From: a virus
DNA length: 29,037 nucleotides
Virus genome (UHGV): UHGV-0149439
Reading direction: 5' to 3' (one strand)
Positions 50 to 14,468 of the stretch are shown piece by piece. The notes under the pieces were generated by a model. It made no database searches, was not told the DNA's origin, and saw nothing but the letters and a program-made list of their open reading frames with translations. The position numbers and the translations under genes are program-made. Each line of letters begins with the position of its first letter. The first letter of the stretch is position 1.

Positions 50-289
50 TTAATGCCACGTCTTTTTGCTCAGGCTTGTTATAGCTGAAATCGCATGTGC
101 TGAATCATCAAAAAGCCGGGTCAGTACAGGAACCCACTGCCTGTTTTTGTACTCAAGCACCTGATGTCCAGGCAGGTCTTTGCTGATGATGGCAAATGTC
201 CTGAGTTCAGGCGTTGGAACAGGGAGTTCGGTGCCAGGCGGGAAATATATTCTTACCCTGGCAATAATCATGTTGTCCATGCTCATCAT
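50..289 (-). CDS. Hypothetical small protein (79 aa from ATG at 289; ORF track opens at GTG 304), directly downstream of the dinI-like gene
   Basis: ATG at 289-287 overlaps the dinI-like stop in an ATGA arrangement (translational coupling); no family recognised. Confidence 0.45.
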   Translation of the reverse strand: MMSMDNMIIARVRIYFPPGTELPVPTPELRTFAIISKDLPGHQVLEYKNRQWVPVLTRLFDDSAHAISAITSLSKKTWH

Positions 290-525
290 TCGTTCACCAG
301 CCACATATCGGCTTCTTCAAACATCTCTTCCAGCATACGGTTAAGTCGTTCTTTTTCGGTCTTTGTGCTGTCGCTGTTTAATGCGTTAGCCTGCATTGGC
401 TTAACTCTCACGTCGGCGTCGGGGAAGATCCGGTGTACGCGCTTTGTCAGCTCGTTAAGAATGATGTTTCTTGCGCCCGGTAGCCCCTCGACATTACGCT
501 TGTCATAAACCAGTTCAACGAACAT
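286..525 (-). CDS. dinI: DinI-family protein (79 aa)
   Basis: Internal Met of track ORF 286..732; translation MFVELVYDK...EEADMWLVNE matches recalled DinI length and C-terminal acidic W-x-V-x-E ending; perfect LexA box 19-38 bp upstream. Confidence 0.8.
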   Translation of the reverse strand: MFVELVYDKRNVEGLPGARNIILNELTKRVHRIFPDADVRVKPMQANALNSDSTKTEKERLNRMLEEMFEEADMWLVNE

Positions 526-543
526 AAAAGCACCCCGGAAAAT

Positions 544-563
544 TACTGTGATTGTATACAGTA
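544..563 (-). promoter_or_regulatory. LexA (SOS) box TACTGTGATTGTATACAGTA upstream of the dinI-like gene
   Basis: Exact CTGT-N8-ACAG core with TA flanks, matching the enterobacterial LexA consensus. Confidence 0.75.
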
Positions 564-567
564 TTTT

Positions 568-587
568 TACTGTAAAAATAAATAGTG
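568..587 (-). promoter_or_regulatory. Possible second, imperfect LexA-like box (CTGT-N8-ATAG)
   Basis: tactgtaaaaataaatagtg; one mismatch in the conserved 3' triplet. Confidence 0.3.
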
Positions 588-645
588 TCAAGGTGAGCGG
601 AGCGCGAAAGGGGGATGTGTTTTTGTTACCCTTAGTTACAAATAG

Positions 646-679
646 AAAAACCCCAGACCGTGAGATCTGGGGTTCTTTT
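646..679. terminator. Bidirectional intrinsic terminator-like hairpin
   Basis: 7-bp stem ccccaga/tctgggg (651-657 / 666-672) flanked by an A-run upstream and a T-rich run downstream. Confidence 0.5.
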
Positions 680-835
680 AAAGTGCACGTGCACTTCACG
701 TGTATATTTTTGTCTTTTCTCGGTCTGCGCACTGTCTGGTCAGTGTCCTTAAGTGGCTGTTTTTATTGCCGCTGTCCGGTTGCAGTCCTATCAAAAGTGC
801 TGGCGGGAGTTGAACCAGCGTCCGTAATCATTTAA

Positions 836-1615
836 CTATCTGTTTTTGTTGAAATCATGTTCATCTATAAAATCCGCGTAGCTTTTGCGTATCCTTTGCT
901 GTATCTGCGCAGTCTTACTATTTTTTGATACTTGGAACATTAAAGCGCCGCGATAAGTATTTTCGTAGGGTTGCTTTCCGTACTCGCGTAGATGATATTG
1001 GCTTGAGTAACTTATAGAAAATTTCTTTCCCTTTGCATCTGAGAAAGTGATTTTTAATGACGGGCCATCAACAATTGTGGGTATTTCACCATTCATAATA
1101 CGTAATGAATTTAATTCGTTTAGCAATATAATTAGAAAAACTGGAGGAAGGATAGTTCTGATTGGTTTTTTTTCTATATTTATGGGTAGCAGATAATTAT
1201 GGGAGTAATAATTTTCTAAGCTATATGGAATGGTTATTCCACCCCCGGATATTTTTATTGATTTATTGTTTGAGTTTTTTCGAGTTTCATACTTTAAATC
1301 AAAAATCTTTGAAATGGAATTTAATTTTTCTTCGGCTGGATATTCCCAAAATAGCTTTACATTTATGGCAGTGCCTAACCCTGAGTTAACTAACTCAGGT
1401 TTGATATCATCTATGGGTATTCTAGCTAGTGGCATGGCTGAATAATGATGCTCATTCATTGAAACTGTGAGCAAATCCAAATCATTAATTAATAATTGTG
1501 GTCTAATTGATTCCTTTCTTTGAACTACTGTTTGCCTAATTGCAAGGTATGCCGCAATTGCTGATAATGTACTAGCAATCAATCCACCGTATGTAACAAA
1601 ACTAGTGTCTGCCAT
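836..1615 (-). CDS. Hypothetical membrane-anchored protein (259 aa), low-GC cargo gene next to the integrase
   Basis: Long ORF with clearly lower GC than flanking genes (by eye, not computed); N-terminal hydrophobic helix (GGLIASTLSAIAAYLAI); no recognisable family. Confidence 0.7.
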   Translation of the reverse strand: MADTSFVTYGGLIASTLSAIAAYLAIRQTVVQRKESIRPQLLINDLDLLTVSMNEHHYSAMPLARIPIDDIKPELVNSGLGTAINVKLFWEYPAEEKLNSISKIFDLKYETRKNSNNKSIKISGGGITIPYSLENYYSHNYLLPINIEKKPIRTILPPVFLIILLNELNSLRIMNGEIPTIVDGPSLKITFSDAKGKKFSISYSSQYHLREYGKQPYENTYRGALMFQVSKNSKTAQIQQRIRKSYADFIDEHDFNKNR

Positions 1616-3062: not shown

Positions 3063-3614
3063 TTAGTTGGTTTTCTTTAGTCCAAAGTAAAGTCCTGCGG
3101 CTATGCTTATTATGCCTGCAGCTAGAACACCAATAATCCAATAAAATAATGTTATAAATCGTTCTAACTGTTTGTCTGAGTAATCACTCATAACTTTTAA
3201 TGATGTGCTCAATGACTCCATATCTTTCTTCATGAGAGGTAAAGCCATTGCTTTTTCAGGACTATTTCCAAGTATATTATTAAGCGTGGATATCTTTTTC
3301 TGTATGTCATCAACTTTTACTTCCAACGCTTCTATTCGTATATTATCTGGGGTAAGGGTTGAAGTATTTTTTAAGGCACTTAACGTGTTTCTTACCTGAA
3401 ATATCTCATCCCTATAGGTGCTTATTTCGTTCATGAGATGATCTGTATCTATTTTTTTATCATAAGATGTAGGTAATGAAACATTTACTATTGAAGTGGC
3501 TTTATCTTTTATTTCTAAGGTCAAAGGAATGAGTATCGATCCCAAAGCGACCAGCATAAGAATAGGGGATAGTATTGCTATACTCTTTGCTAATGCGTTA
3601 CTTGTAAATGACAT
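3063..3614 (-). CDS. Hypothetical two-TM coiled-coil membrane protein (183 aa), low-GC
   Basis: Hydrophobic helices at both N- and C-termini with a charged heptad-like middle; GAGGGA Shine-Dalgarno before the ATG; TTGCAA -35-like element at 3651-3656. Confidence 0.7.
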   Translation of the reverse strand: MSFTSNALAKSIAILSPILMLVALGSILIPLTLEIKDKATSIVNVSLPTSYDKKIDTDHLMNEISTYRDEIFQVRNTLSALKNTSTLTPDNIRIEALEVKVDDIQKKISTLNNILGNSPEKAMALPLMKKDMESLSTSLKVMSDYSDKQLERFITLFYWIIGVLAAGIISIAAGLYFGLKKTN

Positions 3615-4876: not shown

Positions 4877-5569
4877 TCAGGCGTGACGTTTGAATGATTG
4901 AGATTGGCTTATCATTACTTTCCCAAAAATGTAAAAACGGTGTTCGTTAGTCTTGTCCACGGACCATTCTCTATATTTTGGGTTATCCGATATCACCAAC
5001 AACTTATCAGGTATCATCTGTAATCGTTTGACGTAAATTTTATCATCAAAACCAAATACATAGATTCCATCACCATCGAACTCATGAATAGAGATATCAA
5101 CGAAGAGAAGATCACCAGGCTCGATTGTCTCAGCCATACTGTCGCCTCGAACGTTGATTACCTTTACTTGATCTGCCGTTCTTCCGCCGAACATCGCTAG
5201 CGCACGTTCATTGTTGTATTCGATTGACCTGATGACATCAATGATGTCGCTGCCTTGAATAAAGCCGCCACCAGCACTGGCACTAACATCAAGAATCTCC
5301 ACTCTAAACACAGATCCATCTCCAGAATGTGGATTACTACCACTGTATTCACATACAGTAGTTTTATTTCCACCTGGAGTAAATAGATCAGCAACGCTAA
5401 CGCCTAAAGCTTGAGCATATTTGCTAAGTGATTGTTCAGTAAATGACTTCTGCTTGCCAGTTTCTACACGCGAGATGTTAGCTCCGTCGACACCAACGGC
5501 TTCAGCAAGATCAGCGATTTTTAGACCCTTCGCAGTGCGAAGTTCTCTTATGCGGTTTCCTATGTTCAT
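4877..5569 (-). CDS. cI: CI-type prophage repressor: N-terminal HTH, C-terminal S24 LexA-like autopeptidase (230 aa)
   Basis: N-terminal HTH (IADLAEAVGVDGANISRVETGK); C-terminal region with GDSM (catalytic Ser) and a downstream Lys; divergent from cro. Confidence 0.9.
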   Translation of the reverse strand: MNIGNRIRELRTAKGLKIADLAEAVGVDGANISRVETGKQKSFTEQSLSKYAQALGVSVADLFTPGGNKTTVCEYSGSNPHSGDGSVFRVEILDVSASAGGGFIQGSDIIDVIRSIEYNNERALAMFGGRTADQVKVINVRGDSMAETIEPGDLLFVDISIHEFDGDGIYVFGFDDKIYVKRLQMIPDKLLVISDNPKYREWSVDKTNEHRFYIFGKVMISQSQSFKRHA

Positions 5570-5589
5570 GCGTCTATTACATGTTTTTT

Positions 5590-5652
5590 TTGCGTGATGT
5601 GCAAAGCAACTTGCGCAAGTCGTATGTTCTAATTAATATGCGTTTTACGCAA
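5590..5652. promoter_or_regulatory. Right operator/promoter region between cI and cro
   Basis: Operator-like sites TTGCGtgatgTGCAA (5590-5604), palindrome TTGCGCAA (5611-5618), ATGCGttttaCGCAA (5638-5652); candidate cro promoter -35 TTGCGC (5611-5616), 17-bp spacer, -10 TAATAT (5634-5639). Confidence 0.5.
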
Positions 5653-5666
5653 TTAAAGGAGGGTAT

Positions 5667-5912
5667 ATGCAATCACCGTTACGAATCTTGCGTAAATCGC
5701 AAGGTATGACTCTTTCCTATGTAGCAAAAGGGGTTGATATCGACCCGGGAAATCTAAGTCGGATAGAGCGAGGGCAGCAAATTGCTTCCCTAGATATTGC
5801 TGAACGTCTAGTCCGTTTCTTCGCGGGAAAAATCAATGAGCTAGAAATCCTTTATCCACACCGCTATTCGAACTGTACAGGCGCGAGTACAGACATAAAA
5901 CCACAGGAATAA
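5667..5912 (+). CDS. cro: Cro-like HTH regulator (81 aa)
   Basis: AGGAGG Shine-Dalgarno; HTH segment MTLSYVAKGVDIDPGNLSRIERG; divergent from cI. Confidence 0.8.
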   Translation: MQSPLRILRKSQGMTLSYVAKGVDIDPGNLSRIERGQQIASLDIAERLVRFFAGKINELEILYPHRYSNCTGASTDIKPQE

Positions 5913-5922
5913 GGGGTTAACC

Positions 5923-6474
5923 GTGGGTAACGAACCAATCTGGAAAGTCGAACGTCAGCCTAGTTGGCTGGTGGTAGCGATTAAAAAAACGATTACCGAT
6001 CTGCCTGGTGGATATTCTGAGGCTGCGGAATGGTTGGGCGTGACAGAGAACGCATTGTTTAACCGCCTTCGTGTGGACGGGGATCAGATCTTCCCTATGG
6101 GATGGGCGATGGTGCTACAGAAAGCCGCCGGTGTTAGCTACATAGCAGATGCGTTTTCTCGTCAAACAGATAACGGGATTCATATCCCTGGTGCAGCACC
6201 AGAAACAGAGAACGAAGAAATTGGCTTAAAGCTGGCTGAGCTGGTGGGCAGGCTTGGGGATCTGGTCAACGCATACCGTCGATACATCGATGATGGTGTA
6301 GTTGATAAAGGGGAGTGGGACAGTCTGAATGAAATCGCCTACCAGTTCCGGGTAACGCTTATGACGTTCCTGAACCTGATTTCACGAGTTTATTGTCTTC
6401 CTGAAAAGAGTGACGCCCGCGAGTGTGCAGCTCCGGGCGCCTTGGCGAACAAATCTTCGAGTATGGAGAAATAA
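5923..6474 (+). CDS. CII-like phage regulatory protein (183 aa); family assignment tentative
   Basis: Position immediately after cro; AAGGGG Shine-Dalgarno then GTG; HTH-like segment AAEWLGVTENALFNRLR. Confidence 0.45.
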   Translation: MGNEPIWKVERQPSWLVVAIKKTITDLPGGYSEAAEWLGVTENALFNRLRVDGDQIFPMGWAMVLQKAAGVSYIADAFSRQTDNGIHIPGAAPETENEEIGLKLAELVGRLGDLVNAYRRYIDDGVVDKGEWDSLNEIAYQFRVTLMTFLNLISRVYCLPEKSDARECAAPGALANKSSSMEK

Positions 6475-6646
6475 TCCGCATGAGCAGTTTAACGGCTTTT
6501 AACCGTCTACCGCAACTCAGGATGATCCCGGTTTCGGGTACTCCGTTGTTTCGGTATGAACGCAGATTATCAAACCGCTGGGTTCCGTGTAACCACAGTA
6601 GGGCGGTTTCAATTGTGGGGGTCTATAACCGGAGGGCAAAACGCCT

Positions 6647-6826
6647 GTGCGCGAACTTAACCGAAGGTTCAAAGACAACCGCGGAGTGCCAGTCCGTGTT
6701 ATCCGCTGGGAGCCAGAAACACAGCGCGTTATCTATCTGCGTGATGGCTACCCACACGAATGCTTCAGCCCACTTGAGCATTTCAGGCAAAAGTTCAGGG
6801 AGATAACGGACGATCATGAGCACTAA
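6647..6826 (+). CDS. Candidate small protein (59 aa, VRELNRRFKDNRGVPVRVIRWEPETQRVIYLRDGYPHECF...), missed by the 60-aa ORF cut-off
   Basis: GGAGGG Shine-Dalgarno 10 nt before a GTG start; ends 11 nt into the replication gene; more protein-like than the overlapping track ORFs 6423..6806 and 6623..6823. Confidence 0.3.
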   Translation: MRELNRRFKDNRGVPVRVIRWEPETQRVIYLRDGYPHECFSPLEHFRQKFREITDDHEH

Positions 6827-7673
6827 ATTAACCGGCTACGTATGGGATGGTTGCGCGGCGTCGGGCATGAAGTTGTCTAGTGTCGCGATCATGGCTCGCC
6901 TTGCTGATTTCAGCAGCGATGAGGGGGTGTGCTGGCCGTCCATTGAAACTATTGCTCGTCAGCTTGGCGCGGGGCCGAGCACTATCAGAACGGCAATCGC
7001 TAAGCTTGAAAAAGATGGCTGGCTCACGCGTACACAGCGCCGCAATGGTAACCGTAATGCGTCGAACGTTTACCGCCTGAATGTGGCGAAACTTCAGGCT
7101 GCCGCATTTTCTCAACTGTCAGATTCTGACACGTCAAAATCTGACGCATCAAAATTTGACGCCTCAAAAGCTGACCCGTCGAAATCTGGCAAAAACGGCG
7201 GTTTTGACCCGTCAGAATCTGGCGGGGATCCGTCAGTAAAATCAACACAAGATCCACAAGTAACTTCAAAACCCTCTTGTCCGGTTGCGGCGCAACCAGA
7301 CCCTGAAGTCGTGATTACTGACCAGGCGATCTTAGTTTTGTCCCATTTGAATCAGATCAGCGGATCCCGGTATCAGAAATCAAAAACATCCCTGGAGAAC
7401 ATTCGTGCCCGACTGCGTGAGGGGTACAGCGTTGCAGACCTGCAACTTGTTATCGACCTGAAGCATGAACACTGGCACGAGAACGACGAGCAGTACCAGT
7501 ACATGCGCCCGGAAACGCTGTTCGGCCCGAAGAAATTCGAGAGCTATCTGCAAAGCGCTACCCGCTGGGAGCAGAAGGGACGGCCTAAACGCGCTGACTG
7601 GGGTGCGAAAAATCGCGATGTGATGGCTTTTGGTCCGGTTGATACAAGGATTCCAGAGGGGTTCAGAGGATGA
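6816..7673 (+). CDS. Phage replication initiation/organiser protein (N-terminal winged-helix region, repeat linker, conserved phage C-terminal domain)
   Basis: N-terminal HTH-like region (SIETIARQLGAGPSTIRTAIAKLEKDGWLTR); C-terminal DLQLVIDLKHEHW...ETLFGPKKFESYL block typical of phage replication proteins; internal iterons. Confidence 0.7.
   Translation: MSTKLTGYVWDGCAASGMKLSSVAIMARLADFSSDEGVCWPSIETIARQLGAGPSTIRTAIAKLEKDGWLTRTQRRNGNRNASNVYRLNVAKLQAAAFSQLSDSDTSKSDASKFDASKADPSKSGKNGGFDPSESGGDPSVKSTQDPQVTSKPSCPVAAQPDPEVVITDQAILVLSHLNQISGSRYQKSKTSLENIRARLREGYSVADLQLVIDLKHEHWHENDEQYQYMRPETLFGPKKFESYLQSATRWEQKGRPKRADWGAKNRDVMAFGPVDTRIPEGFRG
7126..7218 (+). repeat. Iteron array (candidate origin) inside the replication gene: four tandem 15-bp repeats plus one offset copy
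   Basis: ctgacacgtcaaaat / ctgacgcatcaaaat / ttgacgcctcaaaag / ctgacccgtcgaaat in perfect 15-bp register (7126-7185), fifth copy ttgacccgtcagaat at 7204-7218. Confidence 0.6.
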
Positions 7674-8551
7674 CGTTAAACAAATATTGCCAGGCGCTGG
7701 TGGCACTACGTAGCCAACCAGCCCACGAATTGAAAGAAGTTGGCGATCAGTGGCGGACACCGGATCTGCTTTTCTGGGGTATCAACGCGCTATTTGGACC
7801 ATTAGTTCTGGACTTGTTTGCTGACGACGACAACGCGAAGTGCCCGGCATGGTACACCGCCGAAGATAATGCGCTGACGCAGGACTGGTCTGAACGTCTT
7901 GCAGAACTGGGTGGCGCTGGTTATGGCAACCCACCGTATAGCCGTTCGCAGTACCACGAGAAACAGGCGATCACCGGCATGACGCACATCATGAACTACG
8001 CAGCAGCCCAGCGCGAAAAGGGCGGGCGTTATGTATTCCTGATAAAAGCCGCGCCGAGTGAAACGTGGTGGCCGGAAGATGCCGATCACATTGTATTCAT
8101 TCGCGGGCGCATTGGGTTCGATCTGCCTGTGTGGTTTGTACCGGCTGACGAAAAACAGAAGCCCACCAGCGCGTTTTTTGCCGGTGCCATAGCTGTATTC
8201 GATAAGTCGTGGCGTGGTGAGCGGTTCAGCTATATCAACCGCACAGAACTTGAGGAAAAAGGGCGGGCATTTATGGCGTTGGCTCAATTCGCCGTTGGTA
8301 AAGAGCAAACAATTGCAATGCAGGCAGCCAGGGAACCAGCAGCAACACCGGAAACTGAGTCACGAATCTGGCCTCTCGAGGTTGGTCTGGTGTTTAACCA
8401 GGTGGAAGGCGTTGATGTATTGAGCGAGGCCCAGCAGAACAAACTGAAAGCCAACATCAATCAACTCTGGCTGGAACGAACGGCCACCAGCGAAATTATC
8501 ACAATTGCGCGTGGTCTTGTTGGCAGCATGCAGGGGGTAACCCATGCGTGA
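7670..8551 (+). CDS. DNA N6-adenine methyltransferase, phage Dam-like (293 aa); no adjacent endonuclease
   Basis: GYGNPPYS (DPPY/NPPY motif IV of amino-methyltransferases); start overlaps the upstream stop. Confidence 0.75.
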   Translation: MTLNKYCQALVALRSQPAHELKEVGDQWRTPDLLFWGINALFGPLVLDLFADDDNAKCPAWYTAEDNALTQDWSERLAELGGAGYGNPPYSRSQYHEKQAITGMTHIMNYAAAQREKGGRYVFLIKAAPSETWWPEDADHIVFIRGRIGFDLPVWFVPADEKQKPTSAFFAGAIAVFDKSWRGERFSYINRTELEEKGRAFMALAQFAVGKEQTIAMQAAREPAATPETESRIWPLEVGLVFNQVEGVDVLSEAQQNKLKANINQLWLERTATSEIITIARGLVGSMQGVTHA

Positions 8552-10478
8552 GATTATCGTTGATAACTTTGCTGGTGGCGGTGGTGCATCAACGGGTATT
8601 GAACTGGCGATCGGACGCAGCGTGGATATTGCGATCAACCACGACGAAAACGCCATTGCGATGCACAAGACGAACCACCCGGACACACTGCATTATTGTG
8701 AATCCGTATTTGACGTGGATCCTGTAGCCGCCACCGGAGGTAATCCAGTCGGACTGGCGTGGTTTAGCCCGGACTGCCGACACTTCTCGAAGGCAAAAGG
8801 CGCAAAGCCTGTGAAAAAAGAGATACGCGGTCTTGCCTGGATTGTTCTGCGTTGGGCACTGGCGAAGCGACCGCGTGTGATGATGCTGGAGAACGTGGAA
8901 GAGTTCAAAACGTGGGGACCGCTGCTGGCCGATGAAATGCGTCCGGATCCTGCCCGCACTGGCGAAACATTCAATGCATTTGTCGGCATGCTGTCCACTG
9001 GCATTCCTGCTGACCACCCGGCACTGTCAGAAGTTTGTGAGTTTCTGTCTATTGAAAGAGGTAGCGAGCAGGCGCAACTGCTGGTGGATGGGCTTGGATA
9101 TGATGTTGATTATCGCGAACTACGCGCGTGTGATTACGGCGCGCCGACGATCCGCAAACGCTTCTTCATGGTTATGCGCTGCGATGGCTGCCCAATCCAG
9201 TGGCCTGCTGTTACCCATGGGGATCCTAAGTCTCTGGAGGTGCAGAGCGGCAGGCTGATGCCATGGCGTACCGCTGCGGAATGTATCGACTGGAATGTTC
9301 CGGCCCTGTCCATCTTCGACCGCAAAAAACCGCTGGCGGAGAACACTCTGAAGCGGATCGCGCGCGGCATACAGCGCTTTGTTATCGAAAGTGCGTCGCC
9401 GTTTATCGTGAAGTGTAACCACACAAGCTCAAAAAATTCGTATGACGCTTTTCGCGGGCAGTCGCTGAATGAACCATTACAGACCATTACTAAAAAACTC
9501 GGCTACGCGTTAGCCGTTCCACACCTGACAAAATTCCGCACTGGCGCAACCGGGCAGCCCGTTACCGAACCTGTCCCGACGGTAACCGCTGGCACGTCAA
9601 AACGCCCGGGTGGGAATGGGCATGCTCTCGGGATTGTTGAGGCTGCACTGACGCCATTCCTGGCGGGTAATGGTGGTAGTGAATACCAGGCTAAACCGCG
9701 CCCGCTGGATAAACCTGCTCATACCATTCTGAAGCAATCCCGCGCCTGTCTGGTTGCGCCAGTGATAGCCCGCCAGTTTGGGGCCAGCGTTGGCCATCGG
9801 GCAGACGAACCGAGCGCAACCATAACCGCTGGCGGTGGCGGTAAATCTCAACTGGTAACGCCTACGCTGATCCAGATGGGTTATGGCGAACGACCTGGAC
9901 AAGAACCGCGTGTGCTGCGGCTGGATAACCCGCTGGGGACCGTTACTGCAGGCGGAAATAAATTTGCGACGGTGAGCGCGTTCCTGGCGAAACACTACGG
10001 CGGTAACTATACGGGGCCTGGTGTCAGTATGGATGAACCCGCGCATTCAGTGACCACTGTCGACCATCATGCAGTAGTTGCCTCTCATCTGGTGAAACTG
10101 CGTGGAACATGCCGCGACGGGCAACGCCTGGATGGGCCCATGCCAACAATCACCGCTGGTGGCCAACACGTGGGTGAGGTACGCACATTTCTCGAGACGT
10201 ATTGCGGGGAAAGTGACGATGAATGGCTGGTAACTATCGATGGGGTGAAATACCAGATCGTTGATATCGGAATGCGCATGTTGCAGCCGCATGAACTCTA
10301 CAAAGCGCAGGGCTTCCCCGATGGATACGTTATTGATCAGGACTACCGTGGAAATCGCTATGCAAAAGATAAGCAGGTAGCCCGCTGCGGTAATGCGGTA
10401 CCACCACCATTCGCCAGGGCGCTGGTGGAGGCAAATCTTCCGGAACTGTGTGCAGTGCAACAACAGGAGGTGGCATGA
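8544..10478 (+). CDS. DNA cytosine-5 methyltransferase with an unusually long variable region of repeated modules (644 aa)
   Basis: Motif I FAGGGG, catalytic SPDCRHFSKA (PC motif), ENV motif MLENVEEF, C-terminal CGNAVPPP; five T(I/V)TAGG-type repeats in the variable region. Confidence 0.88.
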   Translation: MREIIVDNFAGGGGASTGIELAIGRSVDIAINHDENAIAMHKTNHPDTLHYCESVFDVDPVAATGGNPVGLAWFSPDCRHFSKAKGAKPVKKEIRGLAWIVLRWALAKRPRVMMLENVEEFKTWGPLLADEMRPDPARTGETFNAFVGMLSTGIPADHPALSEVCEFLSIERGSEQAQLLVDGLGYDVDYRELRACDYGAPTIRKRFFMVMRCDGCPIQWPAVTHGDPKSLEVQSGRLMPWRTAAECIDWNVPALSIFDRKKPLAENTLKRIARGIQRFVIESASPFIVKCNHTSSKNSYDAFRGQSLNEPLQTITKKLGYALAVPHLTKFRTGATGQPVTEPVPTVTAGTSKRPGGNGHALGIVEAALTPFLAGNGGSEYQAKPRPLDKPAHTILKQSRACLVAPVIARQFGASVGHRADEPSATITAGGGGKSQLVTPTLIQMGYGERPGQEPRVLRLDNPLGTVTAGGNKFATVSAFLAKHYGGNYTGPGVSMDEPAHSVTTVDHHAVVASHLVKLRGTCRDGQRLDGPMPTITAGGQHVGEVRTFLETYCGESDDEWLVTIDGVKYQIVDIGMRMLQPHELYKAQGFPDGYVIDQDYRGNRYAKDKQVARCGNAVPPPFARALVEANLPELCAVQQQEVA

Positions 10479-10861
10479 AACTTGTGCTCCCGTTCCCTCC
10501 GAGCGTGAACACTTACTGGCGCGCCCCTAACAAGGGGCCGCTGGCCGGTCGTCACCTCATTAGCGCAGATGGTCGTAAATACCAGAGCGCTGCCTGCATG
10601 GCGATCATTGAGCAATTACGACGTCTCCCGAAGCCATCGACTGAACTGGCAGCGGTAGAAATCACTCTGTACCCGCCGGATGCGCGCCGCAGGGATATCG
10701 ATAATTACAACAAAGCCCTGTTTGACGCGCTGACTCATGCGGGTGTCTGGGAAGATGACAGCCAGATTAAGCGCATGCTGGTGGAATGGGGACCCGTAGT
10801 GCCGAAAGGTCGGGTAGAGATAACGATCAGCAGATATGAACCGGCGGGTGCAGCCGCCTGA
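10475..10861 (+). CDS. rusA: RusA-family Holliday junction resolvase (128 aa)
   Basis: AGGAGG Shine-Dalgarno; MKLVLPFPPSVNTYWR... and RRRDIDNYNKALFDALT closely follow the RusA pattern; ATG overlaps the upstream stop. Confidence 0.88.
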   Translation: MKLVLPFPPSVNTYWRAPNKGPLAGRHLISADGRKYQSAACMAIIEQLRRLPKPSTELAAVEITLYPPDARRRDIDNYNKALFDALTHAGVWEDDSQIKRMLVEWGPVVPKGRVEITISRYEPAGAAA

Positions 10862-10874
10862 TATGGAGAAAAGT

Positions 10875-11561
10875 ATGAGCCAGTTAATCGTGAATGGTGT
10901 AGTAACAATGTCCAGCCGTGATATTGCGGATCTGGTTCAAAGTAAACACAGTGACGTGAAACGCTCGGCTGAGCGCCTTGTTGCTGCGGGAATTTTAACC
11001 GCGCCGTTGGCGCAGTTCGATTTTGAGCATAACGGCAATATTTACCAGGAGTATCGTTTTAACAAACGCGACTCTCTGGTGATTGTTGCCAGACTGTCAC
11101 CTGAATTTACCGCCGCGGTCGTCGATCGCTGGCAGGAACTGGAAGAAGGGCAGAGTGTCAGTGTTCCCCGCTCATTGCCGGAAGCACTTCGCATGGCTGC
11201 TGATTTAGCCGAGCAGAAAGAGCAACTGACCATCCAACTGGCAGCCGCGGCGCCAAAAGTGGAGTTTGTTGACCGTTACTGCTCTGCAAAAGGCTCCATG
11301 TCATTCCGGCAGGTAGCCAAATTGCTCAACGCAAAAGAAACTGAGTTCCGCCTGTTCCTTATTGAACGCAATATCCTGTATCGCCTCGGCGGCACACTTA
11401 CCCCCATGGCGCAGCACATTTCAGCGGGAAGATTTGAAGTTAAGACGGGAACATCGAGCACATCCAATCACGCCTTCAGCCAGACGCGCTTCACTGCCAA
11501 GGGGGTACGCTGGATTGGTGGTTTGTGGGCTGAACATATTGCAGGGGGGCAGGCGGCGTGA
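10875..11561 (+). CDS. Phage antirepressor / Rha-type regulatory protein (228 aa; track ORF opens at 10836)
   Basis: GGAG Shine-Dalgarno before ATG 10875; N-terminal MSQLIVNGVVTMSSRDIADLV typical of Rha/antirepressor N-domains. Confidence 0.55.
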   Translation: MSQLIVNGVVTMSSRDIADLVQSKHSDVKRSAERLVAAGILTAPLAQFDFEHNGNIYQEYRFNKRDSLVIVARLSPEFTAAVVDRWQELEEGQSVSVPRSLPEALRMAADLAEQKEQLTIQLAAAAPKVEFVDRYCSAKGSMSFRQVAKLLNAKETEFRLFLIERNILYRLGGTLTPMAQHISAGRFEVKTGTSSTSNHAFSQTRFTAKGVRWIGGLWAEHIAGGQAA

Positions 11562-12553
11562 GGGCTTTGTTAACTCCTGAAGTCGCCCATCGCATGGGGA
11601 TTGTGTTGTTTCGTCCCGGCGCGGAATTAATGCACCTCTTCATGCGCGGTCGCGTTCTTCTCGAACCTGAACCAGAAGAAATGGCGTCATTCAGTACAGG
11701 GGCTGTTCCCGCCGCCATTCAGCCGCTGGCTGATGATCCGGTAATGCGGAAGGTCTTCGAGAATGAACGGGTTATTCAGCGTGCCGGCGGGCTTCCTTCC
11801 CTTGAGCAATGGTTGAGTAATCGGTTTGAATGCCAGTGGCCACATTCAACGTGGCACGACAAGAACTTCACAACAATGCGGCACCCACCAGGAAGCATTC
11901 GTCTGTGCTGGCATTGCGATCACACTTTGTCCGGGCAGCATACCGAACAGCTTGCAGGTATAGCGGCAGGAAACCTGGTATCCTGGATTCTGGAAGTTAT
12001 TCGTCGCGATTCTGGTTTTCCCGAGTCGCATGTACTGACGTTGCCGGAAATGTGCTGGTGGCTGGTCAGGAACGACCTGGCTGATGTTATTCCGGAAAGC
12101 GTTGCGCACAAGGGGCTACGCCTTCCGGATGAGAAGATCCGCTCTGTTATGAGGGAAAGCGACATTGTGCCTTCCGTGTCAGCAGCCAGCCTCGTGCAGG
12201 AGAAGGCTAAGAAGATCCTCACGCTCTCTGTTGATCCGGAGTCGCCAGAGTCTTTCATGCTCAGGCCAAAACGTCGCCGCTGGGTAAATGAGACGTACAC
12301 CCGCTGGGTTAAAACACAACCCTGTGAGTGTTGCCGACGGCCAGCAGATGATCCGCACCATATCGTAGGGCACGGTATGGGGGGGACAGCAACAAAAGCC
12401 CATGATCTCTTCGTGATCCCTCTGTGCAGAGAGTGCCACGACGAGTTACACGCCGATGTACCGGCATTCGAGCAGAAGCATGGTACGCAGCTTGAGCTGC
12501 TACTGCGTTTTATGGATCGGGCGCTGGCGATCGGCGTAATTGCGAAAGCTTAA
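11558..12553 (+). CDS. DUF968-like phage protein with a C-terminal Cys/His zinc-finger, HNH-like (331 aa)
   Basis: C-terminal CECC...HHIVGHGMGG...IPLCRECHDELH cluster; GTG start overlapping the upstream stop. Confidence 0.5.
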   Translation: MRALLTPEVAHRMGIVLFRPGAELMHLFMRGRVLLEPEPEEMASFSTGAVPAAIQPLADDPVMRKVFENERVIQRAGGLPSLEQWLSNRFECQWPHSTWHDKNFTTMRHPPGSIRLCWHCDHTLSGQHTEQLAGIAAGNLVSWILEVIRRDSGFPESHVLTLPEMCWWLVRNDLADVIPESVAHKGLRLPDEKIRSVMRESDIVPSVSAASLVQEKAKKILTLSVDPESPESFMLRPKRRRWVNETYTRWVKTQPCECCRRPADDPHHIVGHGMGGTATKAHDLFVIPLCRECHDELHADVPAFEQKHGTQLELLLRFMDRALAIGVIAKA

Positions 12554-12574
12554 GTGTATGGAGCGCAAAGAAGC

Positions 12575-13264
12575 ATGAATCAACAAGACCTGAATTTTGT
12601 AAGAATAGAATTGCGCCGCGCGCTACCTGACCTCTCTGGGGGAACAAAAGGGCAGCTTGAGGCTTTCAGTGAACACCCACCAGCAGACAAAAATGCCACC
12701 CCGCGCCGTGGTATTCATCTCGTCGAACTCGAAGGAGAGAAGGGGCCACGCTTTGTTAACTCGCTTTCCGCGCCACTGTATGTGCTGGAAACACGCAGCC
12801 GCCGCAGGCCAATGCCGCCGATAAAAGATGCGGAATTTGAGTCCGCGCCGTGGCGTAGGGCAGTGTCCGCGCTTAGTGGATACCAGCAGGCCTGGTTGCG
12901 GTACTGCTACGGTTTTGACCTTAGCTATAAGCACCAGGTGATGATGTGTGAATACGTCTGGAAAACTTATCAGAAATGCCTGGGTGAAAACTCGCTTCAG
13001 GAGCGCGTAGTAAAGAAACTGATAGGCCTGGTATGGCTGGCAGGGCAGGAAATTACCGCAACCCGAAACAATGAAACCTATAAAGACTACGCTGGCGCGG
13101 CGCTGGCCCGTATGGTTAGCGTTGACCGTTCGACTTGGTTGCGCGTCTATTCAGGGCACTGGGCAGGGTTAAAGGCTGCTTTTACCCAGCTTGATGAGTC
13201 TGCGCTGGTCATGGCTCTTGAATACTATGAGGATGAAGAAGCACTCAAAGTGGCAGAAATGTGA
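12575..13264 (+). CDS. Putative late-gene antiterminator (Q-like) (229 aa from ATG 12575; track ORF opens at GTG 12554)
   Basis: Called mainly from context: last early-region gene, followed by a promoter-like AT-rich segment and an intrinsic terminator ahead of the lysis genes. Confidence 0.45.
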   Translation: MNQQDLNFVRIELRRALPDLSGGTKGQLEAFSEHPPADKNATPRRGIHLVELEGEKGPRFVNSLSAPLYVLETRSRRRPMPPIKDAEFESAPWRRAVSALSGYQQAWLRYCYGFDLSYKHQVMMCEYVWKTYQKCLGENSLQERVVKKLIGLVWLAGQEITATRNNETYKDYAGAALARMVSVDRSTWLRVYSGHWAGLKAAFTQLDESALVMALEYYEDEEALKVAEM

Positions 13265-13356
13265 AGTAAATTTCACTATCTCCTTCAAACGCGCTTGCAA
13301 AATGCAACAAAATAAGCCATATTTGAAGCATATTTGATATGTTGCCAAAGTTTTAT

Positions 13357-13380
13357 AAACCCGCCTATGAGCGGGTTTTT
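13357..13380 (+). terminator. Intrinsic terminator downstream of the Q-like gene (tR'-like)
   Basis: Stem aaacccgc/gcgggttt with loop ctatga, then a T-run. Confidence 0.55.
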
Positions 13381-13391
13381 GCGTTATAATT

Positions 13392-13423
13392 CACCTATTT
13401 AAATCAATTGTTTTAAATAGGTG
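13392..13423 (+). promoter_or_regulatory. Perfect 12-bp inverted repeat CACCTATTTAAA-N8-TTTAAATAGGTG covering the Shine-Dalgarno of the 283-aa cargo gene
   Basis: Arms at 13392-13403 and 13412-13423; the AGGTG SD-like element lies inside the 3' arm; ATG at 13428. Confidence 0.45.
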
Positions 13424-13427
13424 AAGT

Positions 13428-14279
13428 ATGAAAATAGATAATCCCGAAAATCCACTTGAACGAAACGATTTTACGATGGATGACTTCCATCACTACTTAA
13501 GGGAGTTTGATAAAGCTGTATGTGAAGCGAATGCTGTAAGTCAGGGGGTTGGTGTGCGAATGGCTGAGGCTTTTAAAGGGTGGTCTACATACATTTTTTC
13601 ACGAATCTGCATTCATGCTTCAATAATGATTTCCAACGTACCAAGATCAAGATGGGCTAAGCGGGATTATGACTTTTGGGATTTTTCGGCGATTGCACCT
13701 CATGTAAGAGCGATTCTGGAAGCTGAGTTATTGTTTATGTATTTATCTGAGAATCCAGATTCAACTGAGGAGTGGTCAGCAAAGTTGAATGTCATGCACA
13801 TGAATGATTGTGTAAAGAGAATTGAGTTATTTACATCTAGTGATAATACGAAAGCATTGGATTTTTATCATGAACAAAAAGATATAATAACTGAGAGACT
13901 TAATAACAACCCTGTTTTTTTATCCCTTGAACAAGGAACCAGAAAACGTTGCTTGACTGGAAAAGCGCTTATGATTCCAAATCGAGATGAGTTATTGGTT
14001 AAACTGGGAAAAGATCCAAAGTCATTTAAAATAATGTTCGATTTTTTATCTCATTATACGCATATACTACCTATGTCATATTATAAAATGGAGCCAAACG
14101 GAAGGGGAACTGGTTGTTTTAACAACTATGACTTTGGCTATATGATTATGGGGATGATTATTTGTACTGAATCCTTGACTAAGTGTACAGATAGATTAGT
14201 AGAACTTTTTCCTGATGTTAGACGGTTGCGAAAAGGAACTAAATCAAAATTCACGTTAGGGCCTAAACCAACAAAATAA
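13428..14279 (+). CDS. Hypothetical protein (283 aa), low-GC cargo gene between the Q-like gene and the lysis cassette
   Basis: Long ORF with markedly lower GC than neighbours (by eye); no TM segment or family recognised. Confidence 0.75.
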   Translation: MKIDNPENPLERNDFTMDDFHHYLREFDKAVCEANAVSQGVGVRMAEAFKGWSTYIFSRICIHASIMISNVPRSRWAKRDYDFWDFSAIAPHVRAILEAELLFMYLSENPDSTEEWSAKLNVMHMNDCVKRIELFTSSDNTKALDFYHEQKDIITERLNNNPVFLSLEQGTRKRCLTGKALMIPNRDELLVKLGKDPKSFKIMFDFLSHYTHILPMSYYKMEPNGRGTGCFNNYDFGYMIMGMIICTESLTKCTDRLVELFPDVRRLRKGTKSKFTLGPKPTK

Positions 14280-14468
14280 CAATGAGTAGCTTGCTGTTAT
14301 TTTAAAGGCTTCCAAATGGAAGTCTTTTATAATTTCAGGCTTTGCAAATTATACTAATCTTCACATTTTCATAATAGCTCATAAGCCTGCCCCCCTTCCA
14401 TCAACCACAGCGCTGCATAATCTGCTCGGCTCTATACTATCTGCTTAGTATCGCGAAGGAATGTATGT

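Follow-up and report, generated by a model that had tools for sequence, protein, structure and literature searches.

An orphan phage N6-adenine methyltransferase gene in a Citrobacter prophage and the C-terminal module at its junction with a C5-methyltransferase gene

Two DNA methyltransferase genes of different chemistry, one for N6-adenine and one for C5-cytosine, lie one behind the other in a prophage of the Citrobacter freundii group. Their arrangement raises the questions of whether the adenine enzyme has a restriction partner, what it does for the phage, and what ties it to the C5 gene that it overlaps. To place the pair in its context, we analysed the whole 29,037-nt stretch of viral DNA (hereafter the window). 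Annotation of the window with Pfam, PHROG and PADLOC identifies it as a temperate prophage. First come a DinI-like gene, an integrase and an excisionase, followed by a LexA/CI-type repressor, Cro and a CII-like protein. These are succeeded by rep, the two methyltransferases, RusA, a KilAC/Rha antirepressor (Ant), DUF968 and Q. After a low-GC ORF come a holin, a GH19 endolysin and an Ivy homologue, followed by the terminase and portal, which are lambda-type, by a ClpP-capsid fusion and by a tail sheath. The early-right operon comprises cro, the cII-like gene, rep, the adenine methyltransferase, the C5 methyltransferase, RusA, Ant, DUF968 and Q. The coordinates of the features discussed below are collected in Table 1.

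Table 1. Features at and around the adenine methyltransferase gene, numbered from the first nucleotide of the window
Feature	Coordinates	Strand	Details
Replication initiation/primosomal-type gene rep (HTH_36 and Phg_2220_C)	6816..7673	+	PF09524, PF13730, phrog_11896/phrog_428
Predicted phage N6-adenine DNA methyltransferase ORF, orphan; core, linker and C-terminal module	7670..8551	+	293 aa; PF05869, TIGR01712, phrog_111, PDLC03332
PF05869 catalytic core, residues 19-199	7724..8266	+	Pfam envelope; invariant blocks in 28- and 47-sequence alignments
D48-L-F-A51, presumed equivalent of AdoMet-binding motif I	7811..7822	+	D48, L49 and F50 invariant
N87-P-P-Y90, catalytic motif IV	7928..7939	+	Invariant in all alignments
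Variable P/A/Q/E-rich linker, about residues 206-228	8285..8353	+	Length and sequence vary across homologues
C-terminal three-helix module, about 65 aa	8354..8548	+	W234-P-x-E-V ... Q-x-K ... I-N ... L-E ... I; module HMM 8354-8539
Overlap of the adenine methyltransferase stop with the C5 start, 8 nt	8544..8551	+	Junction sequence ATGCGTGA
C5-cytosine DNA methyltransferase, 644 aa	8544..10478	+	PF00145, phrog_116/phrog_23072

According to the ORF list, ORF 7670-8551 runs from an ATG to a TGA on the plus strand. The Pfam family PF05869, 'DNA N-6-adenine-methyltransferase (Dam)', matches it with an E value of 8.5e-44 and 149.6 bits (cutoff 28.1 bits), and the NCBIfam equivalog TIGR01712, 'phage_N6A_met' (phage N-6-adenine-methyltransferase), with 203.3 bits (cutoff 97.05 bits), both scores lying above the curated thresholds. 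The ORF is also matched by phrog_111, and the PADLOC MTase_II model PDLC03332 covers its full length with 530 bits. Alignments of 28 and 47 sequences reveal the invariant blocks GDQW, LDLF-D, NPPY, TGM, GGRY, WWPE-ADH and RGR in the core. L47-D-L-F50 and N87-P-P-Y90 do not vary in any of three alignments (14, 28 and 47 homologues), and both motifs are intact in the 293-aa protein. From general knowledge of amino-methyltransferases, we take D48-L-F-A51 to be the counterpart of AdoMet motif I. The product is predicted to be an AdoMet-dependent DNA N6-adenine methyltransferase of the phage type (PF05869/TIGR01712). The preliminary description, which was made from the DNA letters and their translations, had called this gene an NPPY-motif adenine methyltransferase, and the two family models together with the NPPY at N87-Y90 bear this out. 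The epithet 'Dam-like' holds for the chemistry but not for the family: Pfam returns the phage family PF05869 only, and not the canonical Dam family PF02086 of the alpha class, with its FxGxG ... DPPY order and target-recognition domain. Sequence and profile searches of the PDB found no relative of the 293-aa protein, Dam structures included. In the full-length AlphaFold2 (AF2) model the core is poorly predicted, with a mean pLDDT of 59.5.

The gene is interlocked with both of its neighbours, as had been noted earlier. At the upstream junction, the rep stop codon TGA (7671-7673) overlaps the methyltransferase start codon as ATGA. At the downstream junction, the C5 start codon lies in a different frame, 8 nt ahead of the adenine methyltransferase stop (8549-8551). 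Shine-Dalgarno-like purine-rich runs precede both the adenine and the C5 start. The overlaps suggest that translation of the adenine methyltransferase is coupled to that of rep and of the C5 gene. An overlap of -8, -4 or -1 at the C5 start is kept in nearly all related loci, and the order of rep followed by the methyltransferase recurs in L001, L002, L142 and many other loci. Positions 5400-14400 were scanned with promoter and terminator consensus patterns. Over the whole scanned region the counts of both signals were at or near the shuffle expectation, and nothing convincing separated the adenine methyltransferase from rep or from the C5 gene. The lack of such signals between the three genes fits a single early-right transcript, consistent with the proposal that both methyltransferases belong to one operon. 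The C5 methyltransferase itself carries the motifs FAGGG, PDC, ENV, TIRKR and GNAVP, and its variable region of about 300 aa contains five T[IV]T[AK] repeats, four of them as P-x-x-T-[IV]-T-A-G.

We then looked for a restriction partner. Among the window ORFs of 90 aa or more, Pfam, PHROG and PADLOC detected none that belongs to a restriction-endonuclease family, so the hunt for a cryptic endonuclease agrees with the preliminary description, which had likewise found none. The sole nuclease-type domains among the sizeable window ORFs are RusA, the nuclease domain of the terminase and a weak HNH-like signature in DUF968. None of the three is a restriction enzyme. A type II restriction-modification system has its cognate endonuclease adjacent; the neighbours here are rep, the C5 methyltransferase, RusA, Ant, DUF968 and Q. 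As no restriction partner was detected, the adenine methyltransferase is an orphan, and this status stands with one reservation: a few window ORFs have no assigned function, and there is a small chance that one of them encodes a novel nuclease. It is very improbable that the gene belongs to a cryptic restriction-modification or toxin-like pair whose nuclease would be the DUF968/HNH-like protein (11558-12553) or an unannotated ORF. The DUF968 protein does resemble HNH enzymes weakly (HNHc_6, E value 1.6e-4; phrog_96, 'HNH endonuclease'), and the window ORFs at 836-1615, 3063-3614 and 13428-14279 are functionally unassigned. However, DUF968 lies 3 kb from the adenine methyltransferase, past RusA and Ant, and the restriction models of PADLOC and Pfam gave zero matches to window ORFs. 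Moreover, in a set of 56 loci gathered through the adenine enzyme from one-genome-per-species contigs (the Dam-seeded set), at least 12 carry the Dam homologue without DUF968 (for example L020-22, L034-37, L041, L044, L047 and L049). In its genomic setting the locus resembles the orphan anti-restriction type: it shows a phage genome, a position in an early transcription unit and no endonuclease, within a prophage whose gene set runs from integrase and CI/Cro through Q and lysis genes to terminase, head and tail.

The likely target was approached through characterised relatives. GATC is methylated by M.EcoVT2Dam (933W/VT2-Sa), by M.EcoT1Dam and by M.Btr190III, the last with off-target activity. 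PamA from the Staphylococcus aureus prophage mPhi11, a small NPPY adenine methyltransferase of 141 aa, also targets GATC and requires its NPPY motif for activity. Like the window enzyme, these four are small phage-borne orphan m6A enzymes, with the NPPY motif confirmed in PamA only. PamA differs from the 293-aa protein in its length and in having no C-terminal module, and it is likened here by its published description. The 933W-type and T1-like phage genes are core homologues at only about 25-32% identity, and staphylococcal phage 'dam' genes at 35%. By analogy, our best guess for the target is GATC, perhaps with relaxed fidelity, a guess that we hold to be somewhat better than even. Transfer of specificity is uncertain, because the aligned characterised relatives are only about 25-32% identical. 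The window itself contains 129 GATC sites against 146 expected, an unremarkable number, and other palindromes are likewise not clearly depleted or enriched, so that site counts give no pointer to the target.

Kinship with non-specific enzymes, which would imply relaxed specificity, was also considered. M.EcoGII, Hia5 and M.EcoGIX resemble the window enzyme in being orphan m6A enzymes borne on prophages or plasmids, and they are broad anti-restriction tools that are silent in lysogens. M.EcoGII, however, is a beta-class enzyme with DPPY; the closest structural homologues of Hia5 are canonical Dam enzymes, with DPPY; and M.EcoGIX is a plasmid-borne, strand-specific enzyme. As none of the three is a PF05869 protein, their lack of specificity cannot be transferred to the window enzyme.

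What, then, does the adenine enzyme do? The use of orphan methyltransferases by phages against restriction is well recognised, and multi-domain C5 enzymes and P1 dmt are established anti-restriction or life-cycle devices (PMC12707154). By analogy with these systems, an anti-restriction role for the adenine methyltransferase is plausible. We consider it probable, for the reading as a whole, that the gene encodes an orphan phage adenine methyltransferase, built as a two-part protein, which protects phage DNA together with the C5 enzyme. The two enzymes would be made together on prophage induction or phage infection, whereas in the lysogen the adenine methyltransferase would be largely silent, as comparable E. 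coli prophage methyltransferases are. Once made, the adenine enzyme would mark the replicating phage DNA, and the progeny DNA would then be shielded from adenine-methylation-sensitive restriction in the current or the next host, with the C5 enzyme supplying cytosine protection in addition. Enterobacterial hosts normally have their own Dam. A GATC enzyme would be partly redundant with it, which weakens a simple protection story.

Two other roles were weighed against protection. An epigenetic regulator would require at least low expression from the prophage, and promoter-proximal methylation would alter host or phage expression, so that the lysogen would gain in fitness or virulence. The precedent is PamA, an enzyme of prophage origin that targets GATC and increases both fnbA expression and virulence; the staphylococcal phage 'dam' genes mentioned above share homology with the core. 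We regard this role as unlikely here. The gene sits far inside the early lytic operon, after cro and rep, and the scan showed no separate promoter for it, a setting that the epigenetic reading fits less well than the anti-restriction one does. In addition, the E. coli counterparts are silent in lysogens, and if the target is GATC, its sites would already be saturated by the host Dam. Less likely still is a life-cycle function, in which methylation would serve phage replication, packaging or the avoidance of repair, comparable to the action of P1 Dmt at pac sites. The adenine gene overlaps and directly follows the replication gene in most related loci, and P1 dmt is a precedent (PMC12707154). 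Against this, the same phage backbone carries varied versions of the gene in close relatives (the core only, the core with other extensions, with or without C5), and this modularity suggests a dispensable accessory gene. The window terminase, moreover, is of the lambda gpA type. Terminases of this type are not known to depend on methylation.

The comparison with P1 also bears on the architecture of the pair. P1 Dmt, like the window pair, provides phage adenine and cytosine methylation, is an orphan and has a role in phage DNA methylation (PMC12707154). The window pair differs from it in consisting of two overlapping ORFs in different frames. In P1 Dmt the adenine and cytosine activities reside in a single polypeptide. 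No such fused m6A/m5C protein was found at the window locus, and none of the 27 representative module-bearing clusters contains a fusion of the module or core with C5.

The two-methyltransferase arrangement set out in the preliminary description is not unusual. The public protein cluster P0001 is 100% identical to the 293-aa protein, and dozens of proteins with 98-99% identity, annotated by NCBI as 'phage N-6-adenine-methyltransferase', are found in the Citrobacter freundii complex, Salmonella and E. coli. The adenine methyltransferase is therefore an ordinary, previously annotated member of a common kind; in a set of about 50,700 phage records, 1,150 contain a homologue of its catalytic core. 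The gene order, too, is annotated in Citrobacter phage phiNP (OR565852), which shares with the window the order rep-mtase-met, a 293-aa mtase and the 8-nt overlap. Neither the phiNP mtase nor the prophage entries of the C. freundii complex, all annotated by similarity, differ substantively from the window enzyme. Salmonella phage ST64B Sb44 and the E. coli Nissle 1917 prophage encode methyltransferases with the same core and C-terminal module, placed as in the window after the replication genes and before RusA. Unlike the window, they have no C5 gene next, and the Nissle 1917 protein (439 aa) has an insert of about 150 aa between core and module. In E. coli C3728 the backbone is the same and the C5 gene is absent. 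Phage orphan methyltransferases, mixed-chemistry pairs included, are a well-known form of counter-defence, and the finding as first stated adds little. It does imply that the phage released from lysogens of this prophage may carry both m6A and m5C marks, and such dual marks would bear on host range, on the design of phage therapy and on the interpretation of methylomes after induction.

The part that could be new is the association of the C-terminal module with the C5 gene. ORF 7670-8551 had been treated as one unit; this view gave way to that of a catalytic core and a separate C-terminal module, the latter tied to the C5 gene by comparative data. The core ends near residue 205, and AF2 assigns a pLDDT below 50 to linker residues 210-231. 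In other lineages an insert of about 150 aa occupies the linker site, which is also a mosaic boundary, the match to Nissle 1917 stopping at nt 623 of the ORF. When predicted alone by AF2, the module folds into three helices with a mean pLDDT of 83 and 45 residues at 90 or above, and in the full-length model it reaches a pLDDT of 74-87. Its residues W234, P235, E237, I263-N264 and L268-E269 are invariant. No Pfam family covers the C-terminal module, while phrog_16025 spans residues 230-286 of the protein. A Foldseek search of the PDB with the confident module model returned only generic three-helix bundles, none of them significant (best E value 0.7), and no helix-turn-helix DNA-binding match. 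Of 1.8 billion cluster representatives only 27 contain the module, always at the C-terminus, and it is conserved at the protein level down to 31-40% identity. A search of the literature, whose coverage is incomplete, found no description of the module or of the adenine/C5 methyltransferase pair.

The distribution of the module was followed in two sets of loci. In the Dam-seeded set, the homologues fall into four classes: the core only (210-229 aa), the core with the module (281-308 aa), the core with the insert of about 150 aa and the module (about 440 aa), and the core with a different extension of about 190 aa. Scored with the module HMM, 27 of these loci have both the module and C5, 6 the module only, 3 (Shewanella) only a distant C5-like gene, and 20 neither (Fisher p 3.5e-7, uncorrected for shared ancestry). 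This C5 gene is never directly downstream of a Dam homologue that lacks the module. The Shewanella loci have their distant C5-like gene behind Dam, and a search of them with the module HMM revealed no diverged module. The second set, gathered through the C5 enzyme, comprises 80 viral contigs, of which 79 could be assessed, and in 79 of 79 the ORF that bears the module ends at the C5 start. Different proteins carry the module. It is attached to a PF05869 core in 54 loci, to an MT-A70 core in L113 and L140, and to a class-I SAM methyltransferase core with DPPH in L114, L116, L117 and P0186; elsewhere it is a standalone ORF of 85-91 aa, which mostly overlaps the C5 start codon as ATGA. The module, and not the adenine enzyme, is the constant partner of the C5 gene. 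Conversely, 6 of the 33 module-bearing genome loci have no C5 gene, and the module is found without it in E. coli Nissle 1917, ST64B Sb44, phage LLS, E. coli C3728 and Klebsiella phage ST13-OXA48phi12.4. Since it occurs without C5, the module cannot serve the C5 enzyme only.

Two explanations of this adjacency were compared. The exchange of the carrier among three unrelated methyltransferase families, with the junction left intact, suggests that the module serves the C5 enzyme as an accessory or docking element and in the window protein would tether the two enzymes to each other; judging from the sequence comparisons, we rate this as possible but somewhat short of an even chance. In its fuller form, which we put forward more tentatively, the module would be an accessory subunit or docking domain dedicated to the large multi-repeat phage C5 methyltransferases, needed for their activity, stability or loading onto DNA. 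It would have been fused repeatedly to the C-termini of PF05869, MT-A70 and class-I DPPH enzymes, forming a tethered complex on replicating phage DNA. To the alternative, that adjacency reflects inheritance of a single mosaic block without intergenic space and without functional partnership, we give an even chance. The loci are related prophages that share ancestry, and with zero distance between module and C5 gene, tight linkage alone could yield the co-occurrence. The survival of the module without a C5 gene in several lineages is in line with such inheritance, as is the loose tracking of module and C5 identities (in L064, 79% for the module and 99% for C5). On the other hand, block inheritance has to accommodate an N-terminal carrier that was exchanged, for three unrelated families and for the standalone form, with the junction intact in every assessable C5-seeded locus, as well as a module with a confidently predicted fold that is retained at the protein level across the divergence given above. 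If the module is indeed required by the C5 enzyme, an accessory subunit would be defined for a widespread methyltransferase of enterobacterial phages, and the presence of the same tail on adenine methyltransferases from three unrelated families would be explained. An annotated example of the standalone form is found in Klebsiella phage 5 LV-2017, where the module lies directly ahead of a large 'putative methylase'.

The C-terminal module of the Dam protein, the PF05869 N6-adenine methyltransferase, also terminates MT-A70 cores and a class-I SAM methyltransferase core (DMCCGS...FDPPH). As it is carried by PF05869, MT-A70, and class-I SAM cores, the module is therefore a tail common to three unrelated methyltransferase families. 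The C5-cytosine methyltransferase gene lies immediately downstream of each MT-A70 or class-I SAM fusion. In relatives without the C5 gene, the Dam/module ORF is followed directly by RusA, so that the C5 gene behaves as a cassette that is cleanly gained or lost. The RusA ORF of the window is listed with a GTG start at 10448, giving a 31-nt overlap with the end of the C5 gene (10448-10478). Because of this overlap, the true RusA start is uncertain.

Some Dam variants reach ~440-460 aa, with an insert of ~150 aa, for which no Pfam match was found, separating the core from the module. They occur at loci L142 (E. coli Nissle 1917), L016-L019, L053, L058, and L129. The DNA match between Nissle 1917 and the window stops at nt 623 of the Dam ORF, which places a mosaic boundary at the core/linker junction.

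The PF05869 core matches genes labelled 'phosphoadenosine phosphosulfate reductase' in several relatives, including phages SfII (H42), Flotzy, and Eeyore. Sb44 of ST64B bears the same label in RefSeq, yet it has just 297 aa and consists of core and module. In phrog_33262, a profile of 495 positions, the Dam protein of the window aligns to positions 284-490; this points to a PAPS-reductase-like domain fused N-terminally to the Dam core in such relatives.

The 644-aa C5 enzyme contains all catalytic motifs and a variable region of ~300 aa. Five T-[IV]-T-[AK] repeats were found in this region (residues 314, 346, 426, 466, and 535), four of them in the form P-x-x-T-[IV]-T-A-G, and a degenerate SVTT near residue 505 represents a sixth copy. 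In spacing and motif, the repeats resemble the target-recognition domains that are arranged in tandem in multispecific C5 methyltransferases of Bacillus phages, so the enzyme may methylate several different sites.

Coordinates of features in the window and of module fusions in related loci
Feature	Position	Strand	Remarks
DinI-like ORF	286-732	-	accompanies 259-aa ORF
259-aa ORF	836-1615	-	low GC (~0.38); phrog_7259; beside integrase
C5 variable/repeat region	residues ~300-560, within 8544-10478		
283-aa ORF	13428-14279	+	low GC (~0.41); moron slot between Q and holin
Ivy (inhibitor of vertebrate lysozyme) homologue	17205-17627	+	PF08816, E 1.3e-19
755-aa ORF	22387-24654	+	ClpP-type protease and major capsid domains
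Module fusions to MT-A70 or class-I SAM core	L113:3144-4001; L140:3153-4001; L114:3195-4001; L117:3252-4001		also protein cluster P0186

The 259-aa ORF probably represents cargo carried at the end of the prophage. For the 283-aa ORF, the sole match was a sub-threshold one to DUF5677, with none in PHROG or PADLOC, and a strong terminator-like hairpin lies 3' of it (14304-14327). Located downstream of the lysis cassette, the Ivy homologue could serve in lysogenic conversion or protect against lysozyme, either that of the phage itself or that of a host. The single 755-aa ORF is a prohead protease-capsid fusion.
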